From a virus, in the IMG/VR virus record IMGVR_UViG_3300046010_010555, positions 5,336 to 69,335 of that record: 64,000 bases of DNA. One strand, 5' to 3'. Positions 10,345 through 37,870 of the stretch are shown here, piece after piece. The position numbers were made by a program, and so were the translations under genes. How positions within the stretch are numbered: position 1 is the first letter of the stretch; every line of letters starts with the position of its first letter. The notes under the pieces are model-generated. The model did not search any database. It had not been told where the DNA came from and was given only the letters and a program-made list of their open reading frames with translations.

Positions 10345-10528
10345 TGTAACTTTTTAAAACGACTCTCACCATAGTATGAAAAACACATACTTTTTATACA
10401 CTCTCTTTTTTTTCTATCGGATAACTTAATTTTTGGTTACATAGGTTACAAAGACTACAATTAATGAAAATCAATGACTTAGCTAAAAAAAATTTAGTTA
10501 CAAAACTACAAATGTAGTACTACATTTG
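10345..10528. repeat. Left copy of ~185-bp inverted repeat element (candidate replication origin)
   Basis: Reverse-complement match to 37689-37870; GTTACA repeats, IHF consensus 10469-10481, 20-bp palindrome 10509-10528. Confidence 0.9.
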
Positions 10529-10654
10529 CCTGTTTTTGCCCTTTTTCACAAAAAATCGATTTTGCGATCCCGCTCCCACCCCCTGTTTTCACCCCTAAAA
10601 AAGTTACATATGGTAGACTTCGCGCCCCGAATGTAACTTTTGGAGATAAGAAAA

Positions 10655-13114
10655 ATGCGTGTTTTTTTCCTCGCTGCCAGCTGCCCACTGACTAAAAAAT
10701 ACACAGCTAAAGAAAAAATTCCCTACCCCAATGTCTCCTCTTTTACTTCACACGAGCACACTATCCTGTCCCTTGCTCAATTTGCCAACCTAATAGAAGA
10801 CCATGCACGTCAAGGACACTGCCTTCTAAAAGGCACACTAGATCAACCCCTAAACAAAGAATCGCGGGCCGGACACACAAACAGCACCGCTCCTACTCAA
10901 TGGGTCTGTTTTGATCTTGATGGCATGACAAGCGTAAAAACCATAGACGATTTCATGGCAAAAGCAGGACTGGGAGACATCTCTTACATTCTTCAATGGA
11001 GTGCGTCTTATGGCGTGTATGGTAATTTCACCCTACGAGCGCACATCTTCTTCCTTCTAGATTCAGTCGCTCATCCTCCAGCTCTAAAAATCTGGCTCAA
11101 ACAGCTCAACCTGACAGTCTTCAAAGACGATCTTCGTTTAGCCCGTGGTAGCAAATCTCTAGTCTGGGGACTAGACATCACAACCTGCCAGAACGACAAA
11201 CTACTCTTTATAACAGAGCCCGACTGCAAACCCCCGTCTCTAAACAAATTTCAAGGCGAACGTATACAGATAATCAAAAAACAAGCAGACGTATTTGCAT
11301 TCAGCTCAGTTACGCTTCAGCCCATAAACGCAATACAGAAATTAGAAAGCGCTGCCCTCGACACTCTGCGTGAAGCAGCAGGAGAGCCCAAACTCAAAGC
11401 TTTTGAGCGAAAACTAAAGTCCACGTATCTAGCTGGAGACAAAGGCGAAAAAGTTGATTACATGCCCTCACCTAACGAGTGTTTTGTCTCTTCTAGCAAA
11501 ACAGAAAGAGGATTCACGTATCTCAATCTCAATGGCGGTGACTCATGGGGCTACTACCATCCAGAAGACAACGCCAAATTCATCCACAATTTCAAAGGTG
11601 AACCCCTCTATCTCACAAAAGAGTTGGTCCCCGACTACTGGGATGACTTGCAGAAACAGAAAAATCAAGCCAAAGCTCAAGCTAAACAAGCTCTGGTTCA
11701 AGCCACCAAACATAAAGTATTCATAGCCTTTCAAGAAAAAAATACCGCCTGCTATTACACAGCAATCTATGACACGACTGGCGACACACTAGAATTATCA
11801 GAAGTCAGAACTGAAAAGCAGATCAACAATTTTCTAGTACATCACGGACAAGCTGAAGTTGAACATCCTAGCCTCTGGGAGCTAACGTACGACCCTCAAG
11901 CACCTACTCTAGATTTGCTCAAAATGCAGGTCAACACCTACCAAGCGAGTACATATAAAAAGCAAGCTAAGCTCTTCGCCGCTCAGTACAACCCCAAAAC
12001 AAACACAGCTCCTGCGGCCACGCCTACCATCGACTATCTACTTTCTCATGTACTCGGTAACAACCCTGCAGTCGTAGAGTATTTTAAAAATTGGCTGGCC
12101 TTCTGCTTTAAAAACATGACCTTTTCTGGCACAGGCTGGATTCTTCACGGTGTGCAGGGTACGGGCAAAGGCGCTCTATTCAACAACGTACTTACGCCTC
12201 TTTTTGGAGAGAGCAATGTCACGTGTAAAGGCACGCATGTTCTCGAAGAAACGTTTAACCATTACCTAGAAAACAAAATAGTCTGCTTCATCGACGAAGT
12301 ACAAGTCTCAGAATCTAGTAAGTCCAAGTCCATTATGGAAAAAATCAAAATGGACATGGTTAGCCCGCGTATCTCCATACGCCGAATGAGGACTAACCAC
12401 TACGAGACTGCTAACTACACTAACTGGATTTTTGCTTCAAACATGCACGATCCTCTCATCCTAGACAGAGGCGAACGACGATTCAACGTAGGACACAGAC
12501 AAGAAACTCCTATAGCCCTTACAGACAAAGACTTCAAACAGATAGCCGCTGAGCTTCAAGACTTTGCCAACTATTTAGAAATCTATCAGGTCAACGAAGC
12601 CAAAGTTCGTAAACCGCTAGACAACGAAGCCAAGGAGTTGATGACGCGCAATTCCCAAAGCACATACGACGAAATCACTGACATCCTCAAATCAGGACAG
12701 CTACAGGATTTATGGGATTGGATACCCGACGAAGCTGAAATGATAGCTAAAAGACAAGGAGCCATAGTAGATCCTCAGAAAGATTTGATCACTGACGCCT
12801 ACATCGATTTGGTCGTTGATCTCATCAATTGCGGAGGTAGACATCTGTATGTTTCAGAACTTCGCACGATATTTGCTTACTGTACAGGTAACCGCAAGTT
12901 AAGCGACAAAATGACTTTTCAAAAATCACTAGCTCATAAGCACTTGTTTGTAAAAAGCGTACGCATCAACGGAACGGTGTGCAAAGGCTATTACGTAAAC
13001 TGGACTACAACAGCTGAAGAATTTGAACAGTTGAAACAAGACGCTGTCTCTCGCGGATTACTCAAAATAGACAACATCACTCCTATTTCCTCCATACAGA
13101 AATTTTTACCATGA
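10655..13114 (+). CDS. DNA primase(-polymerase)/SF3 helicase, NrS-1-polymerase-like (AEP N-terminus plus DUF5906 helicase)
   Basis: AEP-like CFDLDG, LRAHIF and later Asp; C-terminal ILHGVQGTGKG Walker A, FIDE Walker B, IFASN sensor, ERRF finger; GGAG RBS. Confidence 0.85.
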   Translation: MRVFFLAASCPLTKKYTAKEKIPYPNVSSFTSHEHTILSLAQFANLIEDHARQGHCLLKGTLDQPLNKESRAGHTNSTAPTQWVCFDLDGMTSVKTIDDFMAKAGLGDISYILQWSASYGVYGNFTLRAHIFFLLDSVAHPPALKIWLKQLNLTVFKDDLRLARGSKSLVWGLDITTCQNDKLLFITEPDCKPPSLNKFQGERIQIIKKQADVFAFSSVTLQPINAIQKLESAALDTLREAAGEPKLKAFERKLKSTYLAGDKGEKVDYMPSPNECFVSSSKTERGFTYLNLNGGDSWGYYHPEDNAKFIHNFKGEPLYLTKELVPDYWDDLQKQKNQAKAQAKQALVQATKHKVFIAFQEKNTACYYTAIYDTTGDTLELSEVRTEKQINNFLVHHGQAEVEHPSLWELTYDPQAPTLDLLKMQVNTYQASTYKKQAKLFAAQYNPKTNTAPAATPTIDYLLSHVLGNNPAVVEYFKNWLAFCFKNMTFSGTGWILHGVQGTGKGALFNNVLTPLFGESNVTCKGTHVLEETFNHYLENKIVCFIDEVQVSESSKSKSIMEKIKMDMVSPRISIRRMRTNHYETANYTNWIFASNMHDPLILDRGERRFNVGHRQETPIALTDKDFKQIAAELQDFANYLEIYQVNEAKVRKPLDNEAKELMTRNSQSTYDEITDILKSGQLQDLWDWIPDEAEMIAKRQGAIVDPQKDLITDAYIDLVVDLINCGGRHLYVSELRTIFAYCTGNRKLSDKMTFQKSLAHKHLFVKSVRINGTVCKGYYVNWTTTAEEFEQLKQDAVSRGLLKIDNITPISSIQKFLP

Positions 13115-13351
13115 CTCTAGATCTTTTTGTGCTTGTGTTCGTACTTATCCTTTTGATGCACACGGTGGATCTATGAGATTTTATTTTATGACTCCCTCTA
13201 ACGCTGACCATAAACCTCGACCGGGATTTCGATTTTGTGAATCCTGCAGAGCCTACAAACCGAAAGACAAAACAAAAGCAGTCAAGGGTTGGAAATGCTC
13301 AGACTGTCGCTTTGTACGTAAATAATACAACTTACCCCTAGGAGATACACA

Positions 13352-13552
13352 ATGCGCTTTTTTTCTGGCCTTCTAAAGATCTTCAGCGACAACTTCATGG
13401 AGACTATGATTATAATACTGGCTTTCACACTGACTGCTTTTGTAATTTCCTTACCCCATGTCGTGATTCTCAAAGAATCAATCTGGGAATGCACTCGTGC
13501 AGGTACACAAGGGCTAGACACGCAGTGTTTAGAATACAGGCACAAGCTCTAA
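13352..13552 (+). CDS. Small membrane-anchored protein with WECT..G..TQC.EY domain
   Basis: AGGAG RBS; N-terminal TM helix; paralogue of 17052-17258. Confidence 0.65.
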   Translation: MRFFSGLLKIFSDNFMETMIIILAFTLTAFVISLPHVVILKESIWECTRAGTQGLDTQCLEYRHKL

Positions 13553-13666
13553 GTATTTTGCCTTTCGCTAAAACAGATAAACTTTAGTTTGGAACCCTCT
13601 GTTTTAGCAGCCTAAGCCGCTCGGGTGAGTAGCGGCACTTCAAACTTTAGCACTTCTAACAAAAAC

Positions 13667-14002
13667 ATGACTACCGATAACAGCGGCGTATCTGATGGCT
13701 ATCACACGTTTGAAGAACTGTATAACCACAGACACTGCCTGTTTCTAGCTCTTATGCGGTCTCACCCTAAATTGTCATGGCGTGCAGTCTGTCACGCAGA
13801 CGGTACTCATTACAAAGGCTGGATAATTTGCGGCATGCACTTACCCACAGGCGATATTACCTATCACCTGCCAGCCGTATTGTGGTCAAAGCTAAACGGA
13901 TGCGGCATTACCACTTCAACTCGTGCGCCCGAATGGGACGGACACACTTCACAAGACGTAATAACCAGACTCGACAAATGGTTAAGCTACAACATGCCCT
14001 AG
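13667..14002 (+). CDS. WDGH-domain phage protein
   Basis: SDGYHTFEELY.HR, LPTGDITYHLP and APEWDGHT motifs. Confidence 0.75.
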   Translation: MTTDNSGVSDGYHTFEELYNHRHCLFLALMRSHPKLSWRAVCHADGTHYKGWIICGMHLPTGDITYHLPAVLWSKLNGCGITTSTRAPEWDGHTSQDVITRLDKWLSYNMP

Positions 14003-14053
14003 AATTTGTAGACTAGTGCGCTTAACTCTCTGTCGTAACCTCGGAGATGACAG

Positions 14054-14326
14054 ATGAATAAAGCAGCACAACCAGTAGCTTACATAACAAACATACACGA
14101 CGGTTTTTTCACGGCCGCATCTTTAGATCACAGTGTAATTCTAAAGTCCGGCACTGTTTTGTATCTTGAATCACCAGAACAAAAAATCAGAAGATGCGCA
14201 AAAGCACTACTTGAAGCGCTTGATACTAAACTCCCATTATTTCAAAGTCATTATGGGGCTGCAGAACGATTCAACTTAAGACTGGCTTTGGACATAGACA
14301 CAACGCCAAATGAAGAAAACATCTAA
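14054..14326 (+). CDS. Hypothetical protein
   Basis: GGAG RBS; QPVAY motif. Confidence 0.6.
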   Translation: MNKAAQPVAYITNIHDGFFTAASLDHSVILKSGTVLYLESPEQKIRRCAKALLEALDTKLPLFQSHYGAAERFNLRLALDIDTTPNEENI

Positions 14327-14339
14327 GTAACTAAACTCT

Positions 14340-14816
14340 ATGAATATCTTTGTACTTGATACCGATCCACTTATTGCCGCTCAATATCATTGCGATAAAC
14401 ATATCAGCAAAATGATTCTTGAAAGTGCCCAGATGCTGAGCACTGTGCTCAAAGGACCGTATAGATCTACTCACGTACATCATCCGTGTACAAAATGGGT
14501 AGCGCAATCTCAAGCTAATGCCCTATGGCTGTGGCACTTAATGGTGCACTTAAACGGAGAATACATCACACGATGGAATAAAGACGATAATCACTTGGCG
14601 TATAGCAAATGCGCCCACCTCATCTCATCTTTACATGTTTTGCCTAATACAGAGCTAACTCCATTTGCTTTGGCTATGCCAGAGCAATACAAAAACGACG
14701 ATCCGGTACTAGCGTATCGCGCTTACTACCGATCAAAATCTTTTGCTGTATGGCGTAACGGCGCACCAAGCTGGTGGCAAGACCACAAGTTGCGTCAAAA
14801 TCCATCAACGCTTTAA
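14340..14816 (+). CDS. denV: Pyrimidine-dimer DNA glycosylase / endonuclease V-like protein
   Basis: MNIFVLD.DP..AAQYHCDKH..KMILESAQML, HHPCTKW, AMP..YK..DPV.AYR.YY. Confidence 0.75.
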   Translation: MNIFVLDTDPLIAAQYHCDKHISKMILESAQMLSTVLKGPYRSTHVHHPCTKWVAQSQANALWLWHLMVHLNGEYITRWNKDDNHLAYSKCAHLISSLHVLPNTELTPFALAMPEQYKNDDPVLAYRAYYRSKSFAVWRNGAPSWWQDHKLRQNPSTL

Positions 14817-14833
14817 CGAGAGAAAAAACAACT

Positions 14834-15133
14834 ATGGAAAATGTAATTATCAACGGTGTTGAGTATGCGCCTGTAACCAGAAACACTGGGAACAGGGCTG
14901 TTGTGGTGGTCGACAGAGGATGGGTATTTGCGGGCGATGTTGAGCGCAGGGATGGGCGTATATACCTGACCAACGCAGTATGGGTTTTTCGGTGGGAGTT
15001 GATTGGGTTTGATGGGGTAATTGCCAACCCAAAGTCAGACAAGGTGACCATCAAGCCAATGCCGACGGGTGTGGATATTCCAGAAGGTTCAGAAATCTTT
15101 TCTGTGCCAGTCGAAGCTAATTGGGGCTTGTGA
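14834..15133 (+). CDS. Small beta-rich phage protein (DUF6948-like)
   Basis: IINGVEYAPV...VVVVDRGWVFAG...L.NA..V.RW; translationally coupled to the Gly-rich peptide. Confidence 0.6.
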   Translation: MENVIINGVEYAPVTRNTGNRAVVVVDRGWVFAGDVERRDGRIYLTNAVWVFRWELIGFDGVIANPKSDKVTIKPMPTGVDIPEGSEIFSVPVEANWGL

Positions 15134-15348
15134 TGTTTAAGCCAATCGGCTCCGGCTACAGCTTCGGCTACGGCGACGGATTAGGCTGCGGCTCCGGCTA
15201 CAGCTTCGGCTACGGCGACGGATTAGGCTTCGGCTACGGCGACGGCGACGGCGACGGCTACGGAGACGGCTTCGGCGACGGCGACGGCTACGGCGACGGC
15301 TACGGCTACGGCACGCCAAATCTTGCCACCAAACAACGGAGAAGGTGA
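15133..15348 (+). CDS. Gly-rich (GYGDG)n repeat peptide, copy 1
   Basis: MFKPIG-(Gly-X)n-TPNLATKQRRR; TGATG overlap with the upstream gene. Confidence 0.6.
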   Translation: MFKPIGSGYSFGYGDGLGCGSGYSFGYGDGLGFGYGDGDGDGYGDGFGDGDGYGDGYGYGTPNLATKQRRR

Positions 15349-15452
15349 TGTTTAAGCCAATCGGCTCCGGCTTCGGCTACGGAGACGGCTCCGGCTCCGG
15401 CTACGAAGACGGCTACAACACACCAAAAATGAATATCAAACGCCGAAGGTAA
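15348..15452 (+). CDS. Gly-rich repeat peptide, copy 2 (34 aa)
   Basis: MFKPIGSGFGYGDGSGSGYEDGYNTPKMNIKRRR; TGATG overlap; 28-bp 5' block identical to copy 1. Confidence 0.5.
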   Translation: MFKPIGSGFGYGDGSGSGYEDGYNTPKMNIKRRR

Positions 15453-15503
15453 GATCGCATAGCCAGCCGCGTTAGCGCTGGCACTTTAATAAGGTAGGTA
15501 GAA

Positions 15504-15815
15504 ATGAACGATAGAGAACTATTAGAACTAGCGGCGAAAGCTGCGGAAATAAGTGCGGATTATTGGACGGTTGACGGTTGGAACCCCCTATATGACGATG
15601 GTGACGCTTTGTTTCTTGCGGTTAAGCTGGGGATAAACATATCTTTTCCCCCCTATATGAAGCACGAACGCCCAGTTGTTCATGCCGGTAAGTATTGGGA
15701 CAACAGCGATGATTGCTGGTATCCATTTGAAGAATTGCTAGACATAAACCCCTACGCCGCAACACGCAGGGCCATCGTTAGAGCCGCTGCTGAAATTGGA
15801 AAAGGGATAAAGTGA
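15504..15815 (+). CDS. Phage protein MNDRELLELAA family, copy 1
   Basis: WNPL.DDGDAL.LAVKL and ATRRAIVRAAAEIG motifs. Confidence 0.75.
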   Translation: MNDRELLELAAKAAEISADYWTVDGWNPLYDDGDALFLAVKLGINISFPPYMKHERPVVHAGKYWDNSDDCWYPFEELLDINPYAATRRAIVRAAAEIGKGIK

Positions 15816-16213
15816 AAACCAAAACGTACACCCTAACCGGAAGCGCCCTTGATTGGGCAGTGGCTAAATGTGAAGGGGCCACAGATGCGTGGTGTTCTGA
15901 TGCGCCGTTCTTTTGGGATGGTGCTCATCCCTGCATACGCATCGGTGGCCACGACGTGAACTACAGCCCCTCGACCGATTGGTCACTCGGCGGGCCTATC
16001 ATTGAGCGAGAGGGAATAGAGGTGCTGTGCAATTTGTCCCTTGCACAGGCAAAAGCCTTCAAGCAGGCAAACCCTGATTGGTTTGCCTGCCGGAAGCAAA
16101 GAAGGTCTGACCACTTTCACGGCCTAACCCCGCTCATAGCAGCTATGCGCTGCTATGTGACTTCAAAACTTGGTACAGAAATAGATGTACCGGAGGAATT
16201 GGTAGACTTATGA
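15812..16213 (+). CDS. DUF2591/NinX-like phage protein
   Basis: LTG.ALDWAVAKCEG, YSPSTDW..GGPIIEREGI, TPLIAAMRCYV.SKLG. Confidence 0.75.
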   Translation: MKTKTYTLTGSALDWAVAKCEGATDAWCSDAPFFWDGAHPCIRIGGHDVNYSPSTDWSLGGPIIEREGIEVLCNLSLAQAKAFKQANPDWFACRKQRRSDHFHGLTPLIAAMRCYVTSKLGTEIDVPEELVDL

Positions 16214-16791
16214 ACAAGTTTAAAACATTCAAAAAAGTGTATGAGGAAGCCGTTGAAAGTATTCATCGGTTCATTGACGACCCTTCTGATATGAATGAGC
16301 TTGCAGCTTGGTTAATGGATACTGATGCTAGCCCTTATTCTTATTTACAGGAAGGTTATGCGGGCATGATGTCTACCGCCGAGGGTTGTGATGGTCTATT
16401 AGCAACAATACATCATGCTGTGTACGACGACGGCGATATAACGTTTGTTAAAGTAGATGATGCACCTAGGATAGTATTTGCCCACAAGCACGACGATGAC
16501 TTTAGAAAATTAGTTTTATCTGTTCAAGAGCAAGAAATAGAGAAACGTCTTATATTCGGCAAAACTAGGCAATACGAGATAGAAGTGTTAAGCATTAAAC
16601 CAAATGACTTTCCTAAAATTTATAACGCTTATCAACTAAAAGAACTTCAGAGATGCTTTTCTTGTGATGCAGGTCGTAACGGCATAGATTTCGCAGTTGA
16701 GCATTATAAGAAATATGCTTGTTTCAGTGAAGATTGGGTCAAGATATGTGCCGATGAAATTACCAAATGGGCTACTTTTTACAACGGGTAA
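16210..16791 (+). CDS. Hypothetical protein
   Basis: 193-aa ORF, ATGA-coupled to the upstream gene. Confidence 0.7.
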   Translation: MNKFKTFKKVYEEAVESIHRFIDDPSDMNELAAWLMDTDASPYSYLQEGYAGMMSTAEGCDGLLATIHHAVYDDGDITFVKVDDAPRIVFAHKHDDDFRKLVLSVQEQEIEKRLIFGKTRQYEIEVLSIKPNDFPKIYNAYQLKELQRCFSCDAGRNGIDFAVEHYKKYACFSEDWVKICADEITKWATFYNG

Positions 16792-16799
16792 ACAGAAAA

Positions 16800-17042
16800 A
16801 TGACAAAACCATTGAACCTATACATTTGCGATTTGCCTGTTGAATTTCCTCGTTCTGAATACGGCGGGATGGTTGCAGTGATAGCCGAGTCTCCCAAACA
16901 ATGCGGAAAGATACTGACTGAGCGATTCAAGGGGAACGAACTGTACTTTGACTTACGCATAGCTATGCGCTCACCCAAGGAGTTTAAGCTAGATCCAGCC
17001 GTAACCTACGAACCCGGCATAGTAGCGTCGTTTGAAACTTGA
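16800..17042 (+). CDS. Hypothetical protein
   Basis: SEYGG.V.VIA motif; ATG 16800. Confidence 0.6.
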   Translation: MTKPLNLYICDLPVEFPRSEYGGMVAVIAESPKQCGKILTERFKGNELYFDLRIAMRSPKEFKLDPAVTYEPGIVASFET

Positions 17043-17051
17043 GGGATTGAT

Positions 17052-17258
17052 ATGAAAAATATAATAGATTTTGCGAAAAATTACAGTTTTGAATTATTTA
17101 TGTATGGTTCCATTGTTTTTGGAATTATCATCATTAGTGGCATACGTTATTTTGCTCCTGAGTGTGTTCAGCTATCAAGCAAAGAGTGGGTATGCACCAA
17201 GTCCGCACCGAATGGGTTGGCTACTCAGTGTAATGAGTACCAGCGGGAGATGAAATGA
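17052..17258 (+). CDS. Small membrane-anchored protein, paralogue of 13352-13552
   Basis: TM helix then L.SKEWVCT....GLATQC.EY. Confidence 0.65.
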   Translation: MKNIIDFAKNYSFELFMYGSIVFGIIIISGIRYFAPECVQLSSKEWVCTKSAPNGLATQCNEYQREMK

Positions 17259-17566
17259 ACGATAGAGAACTATTAGAGCTAGCAGCGACAGCTGCTGGGA
17301 TTGATTACGGATGGCAACACATTTTTGATGACTACGAGGGTTGTACAGCGGATACATGGGACTGGAACCCCCTAACCAACGATGGTGACGCTTTGCGCCT
17401 CGCGGTAAAGCTGCACTTAACCGTATATCAATGGAATCACGAAGTTTGCGTGTGTAATAAATCAGGCACGGTCAATGAAAGTGAAACTGACATTACCGAC
17501 TTTTACACCGCAACCCGTAAGGCAATTGTAAAAGCCGCTGCTCAAATTGGGAGGGAGATGAGATGA
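17255..17566 (+). CDS. Phage protein MNDRELLELAA family, copy 2
   Basis: Shares three conserved blocks with 15504-15815. Confidence 0.75.
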   Translation: MNDRELLELAATAAGIDYGWQHIFDDYEGCTADTWDWNPLTNDGDALRLAVKLHLTVYQWNHEVCVCNKSGTVNESETDITDFYTATRKAIVKAAAQIGREMR

Positions 17567-17676
17567 ACGATATTATTATGTCTTTGTTAGGAGCTGCGTT
17601 TTTCGGAGTATTAGCTGGCACTTTTGCCGGAGCACTGTACATAGTCCTTAAGTTTTTCGTATGGGTAATCTCATGA
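17563..17676 (+). CDS. Small hydrophobic peptide (37 aa)
   Basis: ATGA overlaps at both ends; single TM segment. Confidence 0.5.
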   Translation: MNDIIMSLLGAAFFGVLAGTFAGALYIVLKFFVWVIS

Positions 17677-19390: not shown

Positions 19391-19409
19391 CAATCAAGGA
19401 GAATACAAG

Positions 19410-19980: not shown

Positions 19981-19992
19981 TCAGGAGATAAA

Positions 19993-27655: not shown

Positions 27656-28521
27656 ATATAAGACCTTTTCTAAATTTCAAAAATCTCGAAAACAATAATT
27701 TTGATTCCGAAGAGTGTGAATTTGGGATACCGACTGGCAGAGGGTGTTTTATACACAAAGAAGAAAATTATTTTATTGTCTCCTACCGAGGCGCTAGAAT
27801 TTTAGAAATTTACCCTGACGACGTCTACAACCTAATAATCCCTAAATTTTTTTCATGCGGTACTACAACCAGATGGTCTTATTTCTTTTCCCATGCTATT
27901 TTTTCAGCAAAGAGGAAAGTTAGTACGGCTGGAGTAGTATCTTATAAAATATCTTCAGAGTATGGTGGAGAAAAAAATTTCTCTGTGTCTACTACATCTA
28001 GAAAAATTACTCTGGTCATAAATCCAAACACTAATAAAATTTCTCACACAGTTCAAGATACTTCTTGCGAACCAGTAGTTGAAAAAGACGACGCTAAATA
28101 CAAACTGTTTACCGCGCACATGAAAAAACTAAAAATTATTATGCTTACGCAGGCAAAAATGAATTTGTATGATGCCTATAGTGACAGAGGACGCAAACTT
28201 AGTTTTTCGGACGACCCCTATGTTCCTGCAAGCGCTGCTTTGTCAGAAGCATTTAGGCGCTGTGTCGAATGGATAGAAACTCAAGACTCAGATCTTGTAC
28301 CGGAAATAGCTGAGTGTTTTTTGTACAAAAGCTACATAGACTACCGTTGGGACAAGTCGCTCTCTGCAAATATACAGCGGCACTTGCTTCGCGGCTTCAA
28401 AAAAGTTCAAAACCTGTACCTCCGTAACCAGTGCGTTACAATACACGCTCAACATAACTCTCTGAGTCTAAATAATGAGCACCATAAAAACAGTCAGCTT
28501 CTCACGTCTTCAGGACTTTGA
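27652..28521 (+). CDS. Hypothetical protein (AT-rich)
   Basis: ~289-aa coupled ORF. Confidence 0.65.
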   Translation: MNIRPFLNFKNLENNNFDSEECEFGIPTGRGCFIHKEENYFIVSYRGARILEIYPDDVYNLIIPKFFSCGTTTRWSYFFSHAIFSAKRKVSTAGVVSYKISSEYGGEKNFSVSTTSRKITLVINPNTNKISHTVQDTSCEPVVEKDDAKYKLFTAHMKKLKIIMLTQAKMNLYDAYSDRGRKLSFSDDPYVPASAALSEAFRRCVEWIETQDSDLVPEIAECFLYKSYIDYRWDKSLSANIQRHLLRGFKKVQNLYLRNQCVTIHAQHNSLSLNNEHHKNSQLLTSSGL

Positions 28522-29236: not shown

Positions 29237-29237
29237 T

Positions 29238-29447: not shown

Positions 29448-29469
29448 GCCGCGTTTTTCATGAGGTCTT

Positions 29470-30876: not shown

Positions 30877-31511
30877 TGAGTGAAGTAAAACTTGTCTGGA
30901 TTACTCCAGATGCCGAGGATTTGATTGCTTACATGGCACGCGTCAGCAATCCTCAAAATCAAGACAACCCTGATATTCAAGGGTTGATTGCTTATATGCT
31001 GCGCATGAAGCACGTATCCCCTTTTGAAATGGTTACTGCTGTCTTTGAAATCACAACAACTCGTGACATTTCACGACAAATACTACGACATAGATCTTTT
31101 TCTTTTCAAGAATTTAGCCAGCGCTATCAATCGGTAACTGAGCTACCAGAATGTGAGCTCAAAGAATGCCGTATGCAGGACAATAAAAATCGGCAGAGCA
31201 GCTATCCCTCGCATGATGTCGTTTTAAACAACACTTGGGAAAACATTCAGAAGGCTGTGCAGGATTTAGCTATTGCTGGATACAAAGAAGCTCTTGCTAT
31301 GGGTATAGCCAAAGAACAAGCACGAGCTTTGCTGCCCGAAGGTTTAACAACGACTCGCTTGTATATGAGCGGTACCCTGCGCAGCTGGATACATTACGTC
31401 TTAACGCGTTCAGATCCTAGTACTCAAAAAGAGCATAGAGAGATAGCTAACAAAATAGGCGAAATCATGATTGAGCACATACCTACTGTTTGGGAAGCTG
31501 TTCGTAGCTAA
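30876..31511 (+). CDS. thyX: FAD-dependent thymidylate synthase
   Basis: H.SPFE, RHRSFSFQEFSQRY ThyX motif, TQKEHR. Confidence 0.95.
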   Translation: MSEVKLVWITPDAEDLIAYMARVSNPQNQDNPDIQGLIAYMLRMKHVSPFEMVTAVFEITTTRDISRQILRHRSFSFQEFSQRYQSVTELPECELKECRMQDNKNRQSSYPSHDVVLNNTWENIQKAVQDLAIAGYKEALAMGIAKEQARALLPEGLTTTRLYMSGTLRSWIHYVLTRSDPSTQKEHREIANKIGEIMIEHIPTVWEAVRS

Positions 31512-31516
31512 TCACA

Positions 31517-33427
31517 ATGAAATATACCCAGATCGTTACGTTGGATTTTGAGACATATTTCTCAAAAACCTATTCTCTAAAATCAAAGGTGTTAAACACT
31601 AGTGAATATATACGACACTCCGAATTTAAAGCGCAGTGCGTCGGCATTAAACTTGGCGACGAACCAGTCAGCTGGTACAGAGATCGACACGTGGATTCAG
31701 CTATTCGCAGTATTGACTGGAGCACCACTGCTCTTCTGTGCCATCACACTGCTTTTGACGGTCTCATTCTTAGTCACCATTACGGGGTTGTGCCTGCGTA
31801 TTATTTGGACACTCTGTCGATGGCCAGAGCGCTTCATTCGAATTCTATTGGTGCTGGACTAGACGAAGTAGCCAAATACTACAAAATAGGTAACAAACTC
31901 CCTAACGTATTGACCAAGACAAAAAATGTTCGGGATCTCCCCGATGATCTAATGGTCAGTCTTGGTCAATATTGTGCAGTAGACGTAGAGCTTTGCCATA
32001 TCCTGTACACAAAAATGATCGAGAACTTTCCAGATAAAGAACTCGATCTTATAGACATGACAACGCGAATGTTCTGCGAGCCTATCCTTGAGATAGATAT
32101 CCCTAGAGTAGAGAAAGCACTACTTCGTGAACAGAAGATAAAAGAGCGCAAGATTTTTGTATCTGGCGTTCCGATGGAGGTTCTTTCGTCTTCAGAAAAG
32201 TTTGCTGCTGCTCTTACAGACTCGGGGCTAGCAGTCATACCTACTAAGATCTCCCCAGCTACAAATAAACTGACCTATGCTTTCAGTAAAACGGATCTCG
32301 ACTTTATCGAACTTGGAAATAGCCCAGATAAAAAAATACGTCGACTCGTCGCTGGACGTCTTGCCGCCAAATCTACTATTGGAGAATCCAGAGCAATCAG
32401 ATTCCTTGAAGCAGGCGCGGAAAAGAAAAAACTCCCAGTCTACTTGCGATACTTCGGAGCTCACACAGGGAGATGGAGTGGAGGTAACAAGATGAATCTT
32501 CAGAACCTAAAACGCGGTGGCGAACTCAGGAAGTCTATTATGGCTCCAGAAGGGCATGTCATTGTCGTAGCAGACTCTTCTCAAATAGAAGTTAGGGTTA
32601 ATGCGTGGTTAGCCGGAGATTTAGAACTTCTTGAGTTGTTTAAGACCGGTGTAGACCCATACATAGTGATGGCTTCTCAAATTTACAGCACTCCATTTGA
32701 GAACATTACTAAGCAGCAAAGGTTTGTTGGCAAGGTAGCCGTATTGGGTTTGGGATATGGGATGGGGTGGAAGAAGTTCAAAAACACGCTTGAGACTGGG
32801 GCTATGGGACCTCCTGTTAGCCTAGATGACAGTGTCTGTAATCGCGCCGTACGTGTTTATCGAAAAAACAGATCCTGTATCGTCGATCTTTGGAAGAAGA
32901 TGGACGGTGTTTTATACGGCCTAGTTAATAAAAGAAAAGGCTCTTTGGGACCTTTAACATATGACGACACGTGCAAAATATGGCTTCCTAATGGTCTGTA
33001 CCTTGAATATCCGTTTATCACAGCTTCGTATGATGATCACACAGAAGAACTGACTGACTATAGATATTATGACTACGAAGACGGTGTTAGACGACTATTA
33101 GGGATCAGAGTAGATGAAAAAAAGGCTCACCGCATATACGGAGGATTACTTACCGAAAATGTAGTTCAGGCACTGGCTCGTATTATCGTCAGCGATCAAA
33201 TGCTAACGATAGGGACGAAGCTAAAGGAGAGGGGAGATCTTGTATCTGGACCTCCATACAGGAGAATTGTCACTATGACGCACGATGAAATTGTAGCGTG
33301 CGTACCAGAAGATGAAGCTGAGCAAACTCTTTCAATGATGATTGATGTTATGAGCACTCCGCCTAACTGGTGTAGCGACCTTCCTCTTGGCGCGGAAGGA
33401 GGATTCGACCGCGTTTATAGCAAATAG
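31517..33427 (+). CDS. Family A DNA polymerase with 3'-5' exonuclease
   Basis: LDFETY exo I, HTGRWSG, NLQNL, ADSSQIEVR motif A, RFVGKVAVLGLGYG motif B, HDEIV motif C. Confidence 0.95.
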   Translation: MKYTQIVTLDFETYFSKTYSLKSKVLNTSEYIRHSEFKAQCVGIKLGDEPVSWYRDRHVDSAIRSIDWSTTALLCHHTAFDGLILSHHYGVVPAYYLDTLSMARALHSNSIGAGLDEVAKYYKIGNKLPNVLTKTKNVRDLPDDLMVSLGQYCAVDVELCHILYTKMIENFPDKELDLIDMTTRMFCEPILEIDIPRVEKALLREQKIKERKIFVSGVPMEVLSSSEKFAAALTDSGLAVIPTKISPATNKLTYAFSKTDLDFIELGNSPDKKIRRLVAGRLAAKSTIGESRAIRFLEAGAEKKKLPVYLRYFGAHTGRWSGGNKMNLQNLKRGGELRKSIMAPEGHVIVVADSSQIEVRVNAWLAGDLELLELFKTGVDPYIVMASQIYSTPFENITKQQRFVGKVAVLGLGYGMGWKKFKNTLETGAMGPPVSLDDSVCNRAVRVYRKNRSCIVDLWKKMDGVLYGLVNKRKGSLGPLTYDDTCKIWLPNGLYLEYPFITASYDDHTEELTDYRYYDYEDGVRRLLGIRVDEKKAHRIYGGLLTENVVQALARIIVSDQMLTIGTKLKERGDLVSGPPYRRIVTMTHDEIVACVPEDEAEQTLSMMIDVMSTPPNWCSDLPLGAEGGFDRVYSK

Positions 33428-33463
33428 GAATACTTGTACACTTACTAATGAGAAAACAAGCTT

Positions 33464-33835
33464 ATGAGCACTACACAAGATTTGTTACAATCACTTTGTG
33501 ACTTGCATCGAATAGAAAAAGAGCTTAACGCAAAGGTTAAAGCTACTAAGAAAAGCATTGCTCTCCTAGAGCTTGAGCTTATGAGAGCGATGGACAACGA
33601 CGGTATTACAGAGACCGGCAACAAAGCTATCGGAAAAGTTGTGTTGTCAGAATCTGTCTATCCCCAAGTTGAAAACTGGGATGAATTTGGCGACTACATA
33701 ATCACCAACAGATATATTCATCTTCTTGAACGTAGACCGGCTGTGCTGGCTTATCGAGAATTACTCAATCTAGGCCGCGTAGTTCCGGGTACACTACCGT
33801 TCACAAAACGTAAACTTTCATTCAAGGAATCCTAA
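33464..33835 (+). CDS. Conserved phage replication-module protein (N-terminal coiled coil)
   Basis: V.NWDEF..YI.....HLLERR..VPG motif; lies between polymerase and SSB-like gene. Confidence 0.6.
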   Translation: MSTTQDLLQSLCDLHRIEKELNAKVKATKKSIALLELELMRAMDNDGITETGNKAIGKVVLSESVYPQVENWDEFGDYIITNRYIHLLERRPAVLAYRELLNLGRVVPGTLPFTKRKLSFKES

Positions 33836-33839
33836 TACA

Positions 33840-34550
33840 ATGAGCACTGATTTAACGGCTATTTCTAACAACCTTCCCGACGACATTCGTGCTTCTCTTG
33901 CAGCGGAAATTGCTGCAGATATAGGTCGTATTGGCTCTACTGGCGGCAAAGACGTTATACGTATTACTAACAGAAAGACGTTTGAGCTCCCCAACGGTGA
34001 TTCTGTTAACGAGCTCAACGCAGTCATCGTAGATTTTGTGTATCGCAACAAATACTACCTAACTGCATACAATGCCAAAAAGATAGAGTCTCCCGCGTGC
34101 TTTGCTATCTCCGAATCAGCTTCGGGAATGGCTCCTTCGCCAAACTCACCGCTGCAGCAAGGCGATATGTGCACGACGTGTCAGCAAAATCAATTCGGTT
34201 CTAGCCCTACCGGCGAAGGCAAAGCATGCAAAAACACTGTACTGCTAGCTGTTTTGCCAACTGACGCAACAGACGATACTCCAATCTGGTTAATCGAATC
34301 ATCTCCAACGGCAATCAAGCACTTTAACTCGTACGTTACTAAAGTAGCTCGTACTGCCAAAGTACCGATTAACGCGGTCACTACAAAAATCTTCTTCGAC
34401 CCTGATAGTACGTACGCATCTTTGCGTTTTGAAGCCGAAGCTATCAATCCAATCTACGAACTGACAAGACAACGTCGTGACGAAGCCAACGATCGGCTCA
34501 AACAAGAGCCCGACGTGTCCGGATTCGAACTTCCGGCCTCAAAGCGGTAA
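33840..34550 (+). CDS. Putative ssDNA-binding or annealing protein
   Basis: P.CFA, C..C..NQFGS....GKACKN motif typical of phage SSB-like proteins next to PolA; own terminator. Confidence 0.55.
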   Translation: MSTDLTAISNNLPDDIRASLAAEIAADIGRIGSTGGKDVIRITNRKTFELPNGDSVNELNAVIVDFVYRNKYYLTAYNAKKIESPACFAISESASGMAPSPNSPLQQGDMCTTCQQNQFGSSPTGEGKACKNTVLLAVLPTDATDDTPIWLIESSPTAIKHFNSYVTKVARTAKVPINAVTTKIFFDPDSTYASLRFEAEAINPIYELTRQRRDEANDRLKQEPDVSGFELPASKR

Positions 34551-34576
34551 TCTTTTCCTTAGCAGTCGCACCCCTT

Positions 34577-34603
34577 GCCCCGATTCTCCGTCGGGGCTTT
34601 TTT
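34577..34603 (+). terminator. Intrinsic terminator
   Basis: GCCCCGA/TCGGGGC stem plus T6. Confidence 0.8.
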
Positions 34604-34612
34604 ATTCTCCTT

Positions 34613-34825
34613 ATGTCCCCATCCACATCACGTAAGTTATTTCATGCTCTTTGGCTTGCTGACGTGCGCTTCTATTTAACAGGAGAGGAACATAAGCCGT
34701 ATCTTCAAAAATTAGCTACTAAGCACATAGGAGAAACAAAAAGAGAACTTCTTCGTGTTGCTTCTCTGGGAAAGGATATCCCTAAATTTTTAGACATATT
34801 TTTCCAAGAGGTACTTGATGAATGA
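34613..34825 (+). CDS. Hypothetical protein
   Basis: 70-aa ORF. Confidence 0.5.
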   Translation: MSPSTSRKLFHALWLADVRFYLTGEEHKPYLQKLATKHIGETKRELLRVASLGKDIPKFLDIFFQEVLDE

Positions 34826-35351
34826 CGTAATGGTCGATATAGAAACACTCAATACAGCTGCAAACTCTATAGTGCTATCTGTCGCAGCAGTTCGATTTGA
34901 TAGATCGAAACTCGATGTGTTCGGAGAGACTTTTCACGAGCACATAAGCATAGACTCAAACATAAAGTACGGCAGAACGTTCTCCGAATCTACTGTACTG
35001 TGGTGGTTTGAGCAGAGTCTCGAAGCACGAACAGCTATTTCACGAGCTTCTAGAATTCCGCTTGAAGAAGCGGTACTAAGGCTGTCGAAATTTATAAAGA
35101 GGGACGACAGAATATGGGGCAATGGAGCTGCTTTTGATAACGCTATCCTTAGCAGTATGTTCAAGGATGTAGGTATAGAACGTCCTTGGTTATTCAGAAA
35201 CGACATGTGCTACAGGACTCTAAAAGAGCTGTATCCTAATGTTCAAAAGCCTGAATTCATCGGCGTTGCTCACGACGCTTTGGCTGACGCGTATTACCAA
35301 GCAGCCCACACCCAAAGAATATTTGCACGTAAAAATGAGCTCGAAGCCTGA
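34818..35351 (+). CDS. DEDDh 3'-5' exonuclease (Rv2179c/DUF5051-like)
   Basis: VMVDIETL, WGNGAAFD, HDALADA.YQA. Confidence 0.85.
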   Translation: MNDVMVDIETLNTAANSIVLSVAAVRFDRSKLDVFGETFHEHISIDSNIKYGRTFSESTVLWWFEQSLEARTAISRASRIPLEEAVLRLSKFIKRDDRIWGNGAAFDNAILSSMFKDVGIERPWLFRNDMCYRTLKELYPNVQKPEFIGVAHDALADAYYQAAHTQRIFARKNELEA

Positions 35352-35742
35352 AACAACCTACTATCTTGCAGTAAATAAGCTTCTACCTAAGAGTCTTCAC
35401 AAGGAAAAAATGCATAATCCGTACAGAGGAGGTACGGCTGACTTTTGGTATTCAGGAAACTTAGATGATCTGTGGGTAGAGTACAAGTACATAGCAAAAC
35501 TCCCAAAACGAGATGACAGCCCTTGCAAACTTGATTTGTCTCAGCTACAGCTGCAGTGGCTACGTGGTAGACACGATGAAGGTAGGAATGTAGTTGTTAT
35601 TCTAGGAACTCCGTTAGGAAGTTGGGTATATACAGGACTTGAATGGGAGACAAAGCTAGTGACAAGACCTGACATTATTCAAACCGGATTGACTAAACAA
35701 AACGTGGCAAATTACATAAGGAGGAGAACTATGATTACATGA
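35335..35742 (+). CDS. PD-(D/E)XK nuclease, VRR-NUC or resolvase-like
   Basis: GTAD..Y.....WVEYK, LSQLQ..WL. Confidence 0.7.
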   Translation: MSSKPETTYYLAVNKLLPKSLHKEKMHNPYRGGTADFWYSGNLDDLWVEYKYIAKLPKRDDSPCKLDLSQLQLQWLRGRHDEGRNVVVILGTPLGSWVYTGLEWETKLVTRPDIIQTGLTKQNVANYIRRRTMIT

Positions 35743-35852
35743 AACTAATCGGGTTGCTGGCTAAAGCTACACAAATAACGAGCCTTACATACAGGCTCGT
35801 TTTTACATCTGTGATGCTGTATCAGCTTATCAAGACAGCAAGTAAAAAATAA
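35739..35852 (+). CDS. Small hydrophobic peptide (37 aa)
   Basis: ATGA overlap with the upstream gene. Confidence 0.4.
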   Translation: MKLIGLLAKATQITSLTYRLVFTSVMLYQLIKTASKK

Positions 35853-35879
35853 CGGGAGCGTAGGCTCCCACTGGAGCCT

Positions 35880-36515
35880 ATGCGCCTTACTATCAAACAA
35901 GCCGAAAACATAGCTGGTAGCCTATCCGCCCCTAGTAAAATGCCCGGATATGGCTATGGATTACCCGCACTCACTTCATGCACCGTGGGGAGTATATTAG
36001 CGACAATACCAAACTCTGTCTGTTCGAAATGCTACGCATGTAAAGGCCGGTACATTATGCCGGTGACACAAGCTGCGCAGCTAAAACGTCTACGCGCTGT
36101 CACAAACAATCCTTTGTGGGAGCAAGCCATGATTGCCCTTATTTCAAGGAAGAAAGAAAAATATTTTCGTTGGCATGATTCAGGTGATTTGCTCGGGCTT
36201 TGGCATCTAGAAAAAATCTGTCGTATTGCCGTGGCTCTACCGGATTTCAAATTCTGGCTTCCTACTAACGAGCACAAAATAGTCAAAGACTACGTAGCTG
36301 CTAACCAGCTATTCCCACCTAATCTAGTCGTACGTATCAGCACACCGATGATTGATAGCAAGCCTATCAACTCGTCGTTCTGCACTTCTTCTGTACACAA
36401 AGACAAACCCGCTAATGGGTATGAGTGTCAGGCCCCACTTCACAACAACACATGCGGTCCTTGCCGTGCGTGTTGGAATCCAAACATTAAGAACGTTAGC
36501 TATCACAGTCACTAG
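35880..36515 (+). CDS. Gp88-like Cys-rich (radical-SAM-related) protein
   Basis: LS.PSKMPG, C..GS.L....SVC..CYA.KG.Y, FRWHDSGD, WLPT, C.A.....C..CRACW. Confidence 0.75.
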   Translation: MRLTIKQAENIAGSLSAPSKMPGYGYGLPALTSCTVGSILATIPNSVCSKCYACKGRYIMPVTQAAQLKRLRAVTNNPLWEQAMIALISRKKEKYFRWHDSGDLLGLWHLEKICRIAVALPDFKFWLPTNEHKIVKDYVAANQLFPPNLVVRISTPMIDSKPINSSFCTSSVHKDKPANGYECQAPLHNNTCGPCRACWNPNIKNVSYHSH

Positions 36516-36526
36516 GATTACATACT

Positions 36527-36937
36527 ATGAGCACCTCCAAGAAACAGAAACATCCGCCCATTCTTCAAGCTTCTTTAGATAAAATGATATCGGATTGGAA
36601 AACCGAGTATACAAACATTGCTATAGATCTCTGCTGCAGACTTCAGTACATTGACGGAGGGCTTTTTAGATATTACGCAAAGAAACGAGGACTGGAAAAC
36701 CCAACCACTCATAACCAATGGGTAGCTATGGTAAGCGTGTTACAGAAACTAGGTTATATAGCAAAGACAGACCTGTCTATCAAGTCACGTAGTCCATACA
36801 ATCACATGAACGCAGCACCCGTGTGGGAAAGTAGATTATTCACCGGCACAAGAGAAGATTGGGATGTTCATAAGTACGATAGCTATGTATCTCTCTATGT
36901 TGGTCCTTTAAGGAGACGAAAAAAATATGAATCCTAA
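36527..36937 (+). CDS. Hypothetical protein
   Basis: 136-aa ORF in operon. Confidence 0.6.
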   Translation: MSTSKKQKHPPILQASLDKMISDWKTEYTNIAIDLCCRLQYIDGGLFRYYAKKRGLENPTTHNQWVAMVSVLQKLGYIAKTDLSIKSRSPYNHMNAAPVWESRLFTGTREDWDVHKYDSYVSLYVGPLRRRKKYES

Positions 36938-37361
36938 ACATGTCAAATTTATCGCAATCGCAGACGCAATCGCTCAACTTTCGAAGGATAGATCGACCAA
37001 AGTCGGAGCAATCGCCATTGGCCCGAATGGCGAGATCAGGGCTATGGGATATAACGGAATGCCCAGAGGCTGCGATGATACGGCTGAAGCCAGACATGTG
37101 CGTCCTGAGAAGTACCTATGGTTCGAACATGCTGAACGAAATCTCATTTATAACGCTGCCAGAGTGGGCGTTGGACTCGAAGGCTGCACTATTATCGTGT
37201 CGGGATTGTATCCGTGTATGGACTGTGCGAGAGCGATTGTCCAATCCGGGATTCGAGAAATCATTGCGCCACCTGTGCATACCGACAACAGATGGATGGA
37301 TATGGCTATCAAGTCTTCTGAACTCTTCAAAGAATGTGGAGTGATCACACATGAATATTGA
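36927..37361 (+). CDS. dCMP deaminase
   Basis: SKD.STKVGA, GYNG.PRG, HAE.N, PC..C. Confidence 0.9.
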   Translation: MNPKHVKFIAIADAIAQLSKDRSTKVGAIAIGPNGEIRAMGYNGMPRGCDDTAEARHVRPEKYLWFEHAERNLIYNAARVGVGLEGCTIIVSGLYPCMDCARAIVQSGIREIIAPPVHTDNRWMDMAIKSSELFKECGVITHEY

Positions 37362-37590
37362 AAACAAAGCGACAAACTGGGTGCTCATATCGACAAGCAA
37401 TTACAACGATGCCCTAGCTATCCCCATCGAACAGCTAGAGCAGTTCTTTAACACAGCTGTGTTCATGGTAAAGGGCTACGAAAATGGTGAGGTCACATGG
37501 ACACCCAAGGATTCATATCCAGCTATACAGTTCATGTCGAGTGAGCAGATGAAGGTCGCACAAATGCGTGCAAAAATGACTACAAAGTAG
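37351..37590 (+). CDS. Hypothetical protein
   Basis: GGAG RBS; last plus-strand gene. Confidence 0.6.
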   Translation: MNIENKATNWVLISTSNYNDALAIPIEQLEQFFNTAVFMVKGYENGEVTWTPKDSYPAIQFMSSEQMKVAQMRAKMTTK

Positions 37591-37598
37591 AAAAAATG

Positions 37599-37623
37599 TA
37601 CCCTCGATTTCGGGGGTATTTTT
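37599..37623 (+). terminator. Terminator of the plus-strand block
   Basis: TACCCTCG/CGGGGGTA stem (one G-U) plus T5. Confidence 0.6.
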
Positions 37624-37688
37624 GGTTACACCCGTGCCTCGTAGCCCCTTCCTATGCCTAACCCTACGGAACCCCACACATTTTGGCG

Positions 37689-37870
37689 AAATGTAGTACT
37701 ACATTTAGTGTTTTGTAACTAAATTTTTTTTAGCTAAGTTTTTGATTTCTCTCTTTTTTGTATTTTGTAACCTATGTAACCAAAAATTAAGTTATCCGAT
37801 AGAAAAAAGAGAGGGTATATAAAAAACGTAAAATTCATACTATGGTGGAAAGCGGCTTGAAAAAGTTACA
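37689..37870. repeat. Right copy of ~185-bp inverted repeat element (candidate replication origin)
   Basis: 45-bp and 29-bp blocks identical (reverse complement) to the left copy; palindrome 37689-37706; IHF consensus 37735-37747. Confidence 0.9.

Follow-up and report, generated by a model that had tools for sequence, protein, structure and literature searches.

Plasmid origins such as those of pSC101 and R6K gamma combine iterons, an AT-rich region, a bend made by integration host factor (IHF) and inverted iterons over the initiator promoter, the last being typical of autoregulated iteron replicons. In phage P4, the alpha primase-helicase is the initiator, and two cis sites at a distance from each other, with short repeats in common, are both required. 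A crr and an origin are on record for P4 (PMC9942202). For phage SPP1, published accounts describe two similar origins built from direct repeats along with an AT-rich unwinding element (PMC6316719; PMC3485210). One of them lies in the initiator gene and the other in an intergenic part of the late region; gp38 binds both (PMC6316719), and gp38 bound at oriR is proposed to stall a replication fork and trigger concatemer synthesis (PMC6316719; PMC3485210). The Rep proteins of Staphylococcus aureus pathogenicity islands (SaPIs) are described as self-loading superfamily 3 (SF3) initiators whose C-terminal winged helix binds penta- or hexanucleotide iterons; these flank an AT-rich centre adjacent to rep and point in opposite directions on its two sides (PMC9371898). 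Here we analyze a 64,000-nucleotide stretch of DNA (the window), comprising bases 5336-69335 of the 69,335-bp IMG/VR record IMGVR_UViG_3300046010_010555, a lake-water phage genome rated 100% complete (whole record, G000). It contains two copies, 27 kb apart, of a non-coding element of ~185 nt, one of them upstream of a primase-helicase gene. We interpret these elements, with a confidence that is about evenly balanced, as paired copies of an iteron-type replication-origin module comparable to SPP1 oriL and oriR. Iteron origins and dual origins of the SPP1 type are already known, and the pair recurs across related phages.

Self-BLAST of the whole record matched 10345-10528 (copy L) to the reverse complement of 37689-37870 (copy R) over 191 nt at 85.3% identity (E 4.4e-48), and a second search of the genome against its own record recovered the pair at 84% over 183 nt (E 1.6e-50). 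The 69,335-bp record holds no third copy. The inverted pair reported in a preliminary description of this DNA is thus confirmed by strand reading, repeat search and self-BLAST. The copies consist of identical blocks separated by diverged spacers, with a sharp end of homology at 10528 and 37688. Global alignment retained the 11-, 14- and 18-nt blocks of that description and corrected its 45- and 29-nt blocks to 44 and 30 nt (Table 1). The second copy is very unlikely to be an assembly artefact, as the phage with both copies is present in contigs of four runs from four studies.

Other landmarks were found where the preliminary description had placed them. GTTACA hexamers occur in both copies, forming clusters of six in 10345-10637 and five in 37625-37870. 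Across the window the hexamer shows no overall enrichment (31 observed versus 35 expected); the left cluster has a binomial p of 6e-8, and the clustered hexamers are all exact, with zero one-mismatch variants compared with a background of ~2.4 variants per 300 nt. The IHF consensus WATCAANNNNTTR is found three times in the window, at 9789 and, aligned between the copies with differing N4 cores (TGAC and AAAC), at 10469-10481 and 37735-37747 (minus strand). The predicted IHF site is therefore matched in both copies at a conserved position. The word TTTGGTTA stands at the positions named earlier, and its six occurrences in the window, against about 2.5 expected from base composition, amount to weak enrichment; the match may reflect a T-run followed by an iteron. 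Both copies place a single TGTAAC left of the AT- and pyrimidine-rich arm and three or four GTTACA on its right, with the IHF site situated between inner and outer iterons. Purine content changes from 25-28% in the left arm to 59-65% in the right arm, and in a scan of the whole record for such pyrimidine-to-purine switches copy R ranked first (G000 position 43059) and copy L third (15718). AT-rich islands coincide with both elements (G000 15720-15863 and 43023-43130, up to 0.82 AT). As had also been stated, copy L lies upstream of a gene encoding a DUF5906 protein, 127 nt separating the end of the copy from the ATG.

To place the pair in a wider context, we compared it across related phages. 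A primase profile found 186 viral-contig loci, of which 80 were kept, and the comparison set comprised 18 genomes: that of the window, 15 of 22 near-complete relatives, Pseudomonas phage KPP25 and Aeromonas phage phiA008. The nearest annotated phages are KPP25 and phiR18 (genus Kochitakasuvirus; primase 36% identical) and phiA008 (27%). Homologues of the 2145-aa virion protein whose gene ends at copy R (the giant protein) were found in all 22 near-complete records queried, with open frames of 2022-3360 aa. By self-BLAST, eight of the 18 genomes contain a non-coding repeat that links the region upstream of the primase gene with the region past the giant-gene stop. Two further genomes, G004 and G013, give no BLAST hit but show AT-rich islands, strand switches and common iterons at both places, bringing the pair to 10 of 18. 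Only the first element is present in six (G001, G002, G003, G010, G017 and phiA008), and no recognizable element in two (G011 and G015). The check suggested in the preliminary description, whether relatives keep both copies, thus came out positive for ten genomes and negative for the others, and the second copy appears dispensable in some lineages.

The second element, where present, always lies just past the giant-gene stop; the first copy of KPP25 stands 12 kb ahead of the primase gene, within the early region. Orientation is variable. Among the eight genomes in which BLAST defines it, the pair is inverted in four (G000, G005, G007 and G018) and direct in four (G012, G016, G020 and KPP25). 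In the primase tree, G007 (inverted) pairs with G016 (direct) as its sister at full support, and around the second copy they have little DNA in common besides the element, which is flipped.

All lineages examined share a common plan. Two or three iterons and a box resembling TATATAGG come first, then a 30-60-nt pyrimidine tract, a brief AT centre and a purine stretch composed of degenerate inverted iterons (8-9-bp spacing), and lastly AAATCAAnnACTTAG and more iterons. In the relatives, two or three iterons stand on each side of the AT centre, AT-rich islands likewise mark the elements of 10 or more of them, and TTTTGGAAG or a similar word occupies the place of TTTGGTTA. The iteron word differs by lineage: GTTACA (window), GTTACGA (KPP25), CTTCCAA, GTTCCA/GTTCCGA, TAGAGGG, GTCTTTTGATC and CTAGCA. 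Both copies within one genome carry the same word. Common to both copies and specific to the lineage, the word is therefore the signature of one specific DNA-binding protein. The 18 genomes together contain ATCAANNNNTTAG, which fits WATCAANNNNTTR, 12 times, and 10 of these sites are inside elements. In an orientation-blind, genome-wide scan for pyrimidine-to-purine switches, an element ranked top in 14 of 18 genomes, and both elements fell within the top three switches in eight. Two loci (L153 and L151) have three or four iterons directly before the primase ATG. Recurrence in 10 of 18 genomes, the shared word and the retained IHF motif uphold the view that the elements are under selection, not a product of chance, and origin-like in character as the preliminary description had it, but not the specific mechanisms it attached to it, which are taken up below.

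The elements of KPP25 have a form of their own. Three tandem repeats of 79-88 bp precede gp31 (L006 26618-26833), each with a 49-nt conserved iteron-bearing core, and the second element contains one inverted copy of the core, which points toward gp88 (L007 about 28275-28320; KPP25 record 58275-58320). From their sequence, these repeat units look like promoter or operator units.

The gene downstream of copy L encodes an 819-aa protein in which DUF5906 is detected by Pfam (PF19263, E 1.2e-18) and by hmmsearch against 6k9c (E 7e-49). Its structure model (predicted local distance difference test [pLDDT] score 84) aligns best to the C-terminal region of NrS-1 (6k9c; Foldseek E 1e-25; VIA-align Z 30.1, root-mean-square deviation [rmsd] 4.5, 390 residues aligned). 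The model also aligns to the SaPI5 primase-helicase PriRep5 (7ola; Z 17.3, rmsd 5.0, 357 aligned), vaccinia D5 (8apl; Z 15.4, rmsd 7.5, 348 aligned), PriRep1 with double-stranded DNA (7pds; Z 13.9, rmsd 5.3, 298 aligned) and the helicases of papillomavirus E1 and adeno-associated virus Rep (Z about 11, rmsd 3.6-3.7, 184-197 aligned). These alignments reach residue 782-789, passing through the C-terminal helix-helix-beta-hairpin; sequence identity to the SaPI proteins is 12-14%. The modeled fold supports assignment of the protein as an SF3 primase-helicase of the NrS-1/D5/SaPI-Rep kind, and Pfam, hmmsearch, Foldseek and VIA-align all bear out the earlier proposal of an adjacent NrS-1-like helicase. 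Residues 1-350 had no Pfam or PDB sequence match, including none to the NrS-1 Prim/Pol. Within this N-terminal domain, D87, D89, H130 and D181 are invariant, and we take these residues to fit the motifs of AEP primases. Full-length D5 aligns over residues 1-668 with an rmsd of 18.5.

How the locus relates to the systems outlined above can now be specified. As in SPP1, two similar sequences composed of repeats and an AT-rich part are located at the initiator gene and in the late region. SPP1 employs gp38, a loader and a DnaB-type helicase together with host polymerases, a gp38-type set that was not found in the window. The window instead encodes a fusion of an AEP-like primase with an SF3 helicase, along with an SNF2 helicase, exonucleases and a family A polymerase of the phage itself, and there is no protein homology between the two phages. 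Furthermore, the window has hexamers in inverted arrangement about a symmetric strand switch, together with an IHF site, and its first copy precedes the gene and does not lie within it. The machinery being unrelated, the likeness to SPP1 is a resemblance in working and not family membership.

SaPI origins resemble the window elements in the placement of iterons on both sides of an AT centre beside an SF3 helicase gene (primase-fused in SaPI5), although the SaPI type calls for two or more iterons per side, and the window copies have one on the left. A candidate AT-rich unwinding region is recognizable at both window elements, and the alignments of the window protein to 7ola and 7pds include the C-terminal domain. 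In contrast to the single SaPI origin downstream of rep, the window has two copies, one upstream of the gene and one 27 kb away, with an IHF site in each, and the putative recognition helix of the window protein does not co-vary with the iterons. P4 is similar in having a primase-helicase initiator and two separated repeat-bearing sites, but the second site is missing in 6 of the 18 genomes compared here, and the sites lie 27 kb apart, compared with a few kb in P4. The origins of pSC101 and R6K gamma also combine iterons and an AT-rich region with an IHF bend and with inverted iterons at the initiator promoter; these replicons differ in being plasmids and not lytic phages and in using a small winged-helix Rep that recruits host DnaB. 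Lastly, NrS-1 starts synthesis at 5'-TTTGGTTA-3', as the preliminary description had stated and as is in print, and does so more efficiently at GTG sites (PMC8718748). The DUF5906 region of NrS-1 provides the best structural match to the 819-aa protein, and TTTGGTTA is present in both window elements; however, the sequence match is limited to the C-terminal region, and the word overlaps an iteron and is not kept in relatives.

We favor an iteron-type origin module that is present twice because opposed iterons surround a symmetric AT-rich strand switch and the IHF site is conserved. The same interpretation is suggested by the location of the module beside an SF3 primase-helicase gene, by the extra iterons at the promoter of this gene and by the recurrence of the same word at a second, orientation-free site. 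In the mechanism we propose, a phage protein that recognizes the lineage-specific hexamer would bind the iterons, IHF would bend the DNA and the AT-rich centre would melt. Two helicase hexamers would then load outward, each moving 3'-to-5' on the pyrimidine-rich strand. Copy L would be the origin beside the initiator gene, and the extra inverted iteron pair over the primase promoter, which at 10599-10641 adjoins the primase ribosome-binding site, would provide autoregulation. Copy R, at the end of the late operon, would work in either orientation and could be an auxiliary second origin, an initiator-bound fork barrier or both, as proposed for SPP1 oriR. The most likely binder would be the adjacent self-loading primase/SF3-helicase, acting through its C-terminal winged-helix-like domain; alternatively, a fast-evolving protein encoded just upstream of copy L may fill this role.

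Several observations weigh against this proposal. In the window, a single iteron, not two, lies to the left of the AT region. The second copy is missing in six of the 18 genomes and both copies in two, and the constant place of the second copy after the giant gene is without explanation. Cumulative GC-skew extremes are inconsistent across the 18 genomes when the first element (element A) is taken as the start, so that the GC-skew check put forward earlier gave no consistent inflection at the elements. In KPP25, the iteron-bearing unit points toward the downstream gene at both copies, and AT-rich islands in phage genomes are typical of promoters as well. The isolated C-terminal 130 aa of the primase-helicase, for which the model is mediocre (pLDDT 65), gave weak winged-helix-type matches at best (MCM8 winged helix, Z 3.3, rmsd 5.9, 63 aligned; Foldseek E 0.16 or worse), with no Foldseek match at E 0.001 or better and no VIA-align Z of 5 or more. 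Its putative recognition helix, KFTSLLKHHRIH, is almost invariant across genomes with different iterons, and the primase-helicase is consequently not clearly the determinant of specificity. Finally, while the repeats, their recurrence in the family, their common plan and the fold class of the neighbouring protein are shown by the data, binding, melting, the role of copy R and initiation at either element are steps that we infer.

With regard to specificity, one further candidate was rejected. A possible Arg-to-other change in the C-terminal helix tracking GTTAC-type genomes was dropped, because only two such genomes remained once G015 was found to be without an element. The alternative binder in the window would be the 267-aa product of an open reading frame (ORF) just upstream of copy L. 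Most relatives have a fast-evolving ORF of 330-390 aa upstream of element A (e.g., L104:2704-3696 and L147:91-1191, both minus strand). These ORFs form loose similarity clusters only, under ORF calling that is naive in GC-rich genomes; Pfam gave zero hits in the 10 examined, and the window ORF matches none of them. The product of such an ORF is a possible lineage-specific DNA-binding protein.

The window represents a podophage-like genome with two gene blocks (Table 1). The minus-strand late block runs from 8054 to 77 and encodes the small and large terminase, portal and major head protein; it then wraps and continues from 64000 to 37866, its last gene encoding the 2145-aa virion protein. At the start of the plus-strand block (8383-37590) are a few small early genes; copy L and the replication genes come next. 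The latter encode, after the 819-aa DUF5906 protein, an AAA ATPase, a DUF2201 protein, exonucleases and an SNF2 helicase; thymidylate synthase, a family A DNA polymerase and dCMP deaminase are further products of this block. Copy R overlaps the stop of the 2145-aa gene at one end, and a hairpin bordered on each side by T-runs lies ~70 nt from its other end. The 2145-aa protein yielded zero Pfam hits and zero PDB sequence matches at E below 0.09. We considered it as an N4-like virion RNA polymerase and rejected this candidate, which had no support from Pfam or from PDB at the same cutoff; an ejection protein or a polymerase would be conceivable functions.

Table 1. Coordinates of the paired elements, their parts and adjacent genes in the window (positions in window numbering; identical blocks from global alignment)
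Feature	Position	Strand	Remarks
ORF of 267 aa without known family	9341..10144	+	just upstream of copy L; candidate iteron binder
Copy L, origin-like module	10345..10528	+	upstream of primase-helicase gene; 85% identical to reverse complement of copy R
Outer iteron TGTAAC (GTTACA on minus)	10345..10350	-	left of AT/pyrimidine arm
Identical block, 11 nt	10345-10355 / 37860-37870		
Identical block, 14 nt	10367-10380 / 37834-37847		
Pyrimidine- and AT-rich arm	10381..10419	+	28% purine on top strand; candidate unwinding region
Identical block, 44 nt	10408-10451 / 37765-37808		
TTTGGTTA, then two tandem GGTTACA iterons	10432..10450	+	iterons 9 bp apart, within 44-nt identical block
IHF consensus AATCAATGACTTA	10469..10481	+	extended form AAATCAAnnACTTAG retained by relatives
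Identical block, 30 nt	10477-10506 / 37710-37739		
Fourth iteron GTTACA	10497..10502	+	after A8 tract
Perfect palindrome AAATGTAGTACTACATTT, 18 bp	10510..10527 / 37689-37706	.	last block common to the copies
Inverted iterons AAAAGTTACAT / ATGTAACTTTT	10599..10641	+	around -10-like TGGTAGACT; candidate operator outside shared repeat
Primase-helicase, 819 aa	10655..13114	+	N-terminal domain, SF3 helicase (DUF5906), C-terminal helix-helix-beta-hairpin
Terminator-like hairpin	37598..37630	.	T-runs on both sides; ends plus-strand block; then GGTTACA 37624-37630
Copy R, same module inverted	37689..37870	-	at convergent junction of the two gene blocks
Further copy R iterons	37714 (minus), 37865 (plus)		37865 iteron overlaps stop of 2145-aa gene
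IHF consensus AATCAAAAACTTA	37735..37747	-	in copy R
Tandem iterons of copy R	37766..37780	-	TGTAAC on plus strand at 37766 and 37775
Virion protein gene, 2145 aa, phrog_30152	37866..44303	-	copy R or its counterpart just past the stop

Among other explanations, duplicated transcription-control modules are a serious rival, although we regard them as rather less likely than paired origins. The hexamers would then be operators for a phage regulator, IHF would supply a bend, and the AT part would act as promoter, UP element or insulator. The primase (middle) operon would be activated or repressed from copy L, and copy R would govern the late operon's end or, in relatives, the genes after the giant gene. 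In several genomes, the early units end in terminator-like hairpins before copy L, and the primase operon therefore needs its own nearby promoter. Also consistent with control of transcription are the inverted iteron pair that flanks the -10-like box at 10599-10641, the three tandem KPP25 units pointing to gp31 with the inverted unit of the second copy pointing to gp88, and a weakly promoter-like GTTACA-N18-TACATT with an upstream A-tract that is preserved in both window copies. However, a strict scan with the sigma-70 consensus, which may not be that of the host, found zero sites in either element. Copy R of the window has no gene to drive, because it is situated between converging blocks, ~70 nt from the bidirectional terminator-like hairpin. 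Moreover, the orientation of the second copy flips between sister genomes, which a one-way promoter would not tolerate, and an AT-rich stretch of ~100 nt with a symmetric switch exceeds the needs of a promoter. Iteron-binding initiators often double as repressors, and by analogy with autoregulated replicons, replication and regulatory roles can coexist in the elements.

The preliminary description had preferred an obligate two-site system, either opposed strand-specific priming origins like the ssi sites of RSF1010 or a looped bipartite origin like P4 ori and crr. The occurrence of identical iterons at two sites, of which one adjoins a primase-helicase gene, is reminiscent of P4; the NrS-1 primase word TTTGGTTA is present in both copies, and one protein binding both sites could bridge them. 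Nonetheless, we consider such a system distinctly improbable. The copies are direct in four of the eight genomes with BLAST orientation, which rules out a fixed opposed pair, and the flip between the sisters G007 and G016 and the internal symmetry of each copy likewise contradict strand-specific priming. With the primase-side copy alone in six of the 18 genomes, an obligate bipartite origin is unlikely. The weak enrichment of TTTGGTTA and the presence of other words at its place in relatives add to this. The self-priming hairpins that had also been envisaged are not borne out, as single-strand DNA folding of the copies is not clearly better than that of shuffled sequences (z -1.49 and -1.95; palindromes alone fold). 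The central parts gave z +1.04 and -1.04, and an Rfam scan of the window returned zero families at the gathering score.

Iterons around an IHF site are also a feature of lambda cosB and P1 parS. On this model, the elements could serve another DNA transaction, namely small-terminase recognition (cosB-like), partition or condensation (parS-like) or a stop signal for injection. Such a role would fit the similar layout, an orientation-independent function and the conserved placement where the early, middle and late blocks border on one another. We nevertheless find these possibilities distinctly improbable: neither copy is near the terminase genes (5015-7812), packaging from two starts separated by 27 kb would fragment the genome, the 38 ORFs scanned include no ParB-like protein, and the constant place beside the primase-helicase gene fits replication better.

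It is highly improbable that the repeats serve inversion of the 27-kb block, arose as a neutral duplication or are an artefact of assembly. Rare homologous recombination could use the 44-nt core, which is identical and inverted, but the occurrence of both copies in four runs from four studies, conserved blocks with diverged spacers and recurrence in the family argue otherwise. Copy L (X9, record 20) and copy R (X16, record 10) are each bridged by a single contig, whose flanks are parental in both cases. The contig matches listed include no recombinant junction; rare inversion isomers may not show in such data, which provide neither a depth profile nor transcript ends. As k-mer assembly predicts, the 44/45-nt block common to the copies interrupts contigs, and copy linkage is for this reason unreadable in X8 and X14. 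In the relatives whose repeats are direct (four of eight), inversion is not possible. The flipping proposed as an alternative in the preliminary description is thus not supported by contigs or relatives, and its remark that the window lacks a recombinase agrees with the absence of one among the 38 ORFs scanned (some small ORFs lay outside the scan).

In the course of this analysis, we noted several additional features of the phage and its relatives. The variant strain of X8 and X14 diverges by ~4% upstream of ~10064 (42 changes and 7 gaps in 1138 nt; 9300-10437) and by <0.5% downstream (2-4 changes in 878 nt; 10423-11300), a step that looks, from the sequence, like a mosaic boundary close to copy L. 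DNA of the phage was found in lake and freshwater metagenome contigs from 18 studies, with no RNA dataset among the listed sequencing runs that contain it. A homing-endonuclease-like ORF is located amid the late genes (59467-60282, minus strand; phrog_314, E 3e-12). Coding tandem repeats (15130-15420, 63549-63975, 6785-6896 and 7629-7745) include Gly-X-like repeats of 12/18-nt period in small ORFs, a 9-nt period repeated 21 times at the window end, and, in the small-terminase gene, 18-nt repeats as well as 25/15-nt repeats near the gene start. Two small genes 1.75 kb apart (15501-15642 and 17252-17426) share 44 nt (93%) and 64 nt (77%), and are probably paralogues of the early/middle block. 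A direct repeat of 124 nt (85%) connects G000 24-147, outside the window, with 57445-57568 of the window in the tail-fibre gene region, and a second repeat pair of 58 nt lies near it. Terminal direct repeats of 114-260 nt, often exactly 127, are present at the record ends of G001-G005, G010-G012, G017 and G020; these look like circular-assembly overlaps rather than physical terminal repeats.

The literature on Kochitakasuvirus and KPP25, searched without the 2014 KPP25 paper (Virus Res), yielded no description of the paired elements, and passages of PMC13730344 and PMC13340246 are silent on origins and non-coding repeats. Extending the origin interpretation to the family, we tentatively propose, as a possibility we would sooner doubt than assert, that podophages of ~65-70 kb replicate from two symmetric iteron/IHF origin copies, with the self-loading primase/SF3-helicase loading at both. 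The second copy, indifferent to flipping, would be a fork barrier or a second origin that times the switch from circle-to-circle replication to concatemers. A family of this kind would span uncultured freshwater and soil phages and the therapeutic Pseudomonas genus Kochitakasuvirus; its members include P. aeruginosa phages under study for therapy (KPP25, phiR18, A1002 and CRPAP1904). If the proposal is true, logic similar to that of SPP1 evolved independently with machinery resembling that of eukaryotic viruses (D5/E1-type), and if copy R acts as in SPP1, a design with two origins, one of them a barrier, arose twice with unrelated machinery. The iteron/IHF pair offers concrete candidates for the origins of the family and for the DNA specificity of D5/NrS-1/SaPI-Rep-like primase-helicases, and the elements define cis sites for mini-replicons and phage engineering.

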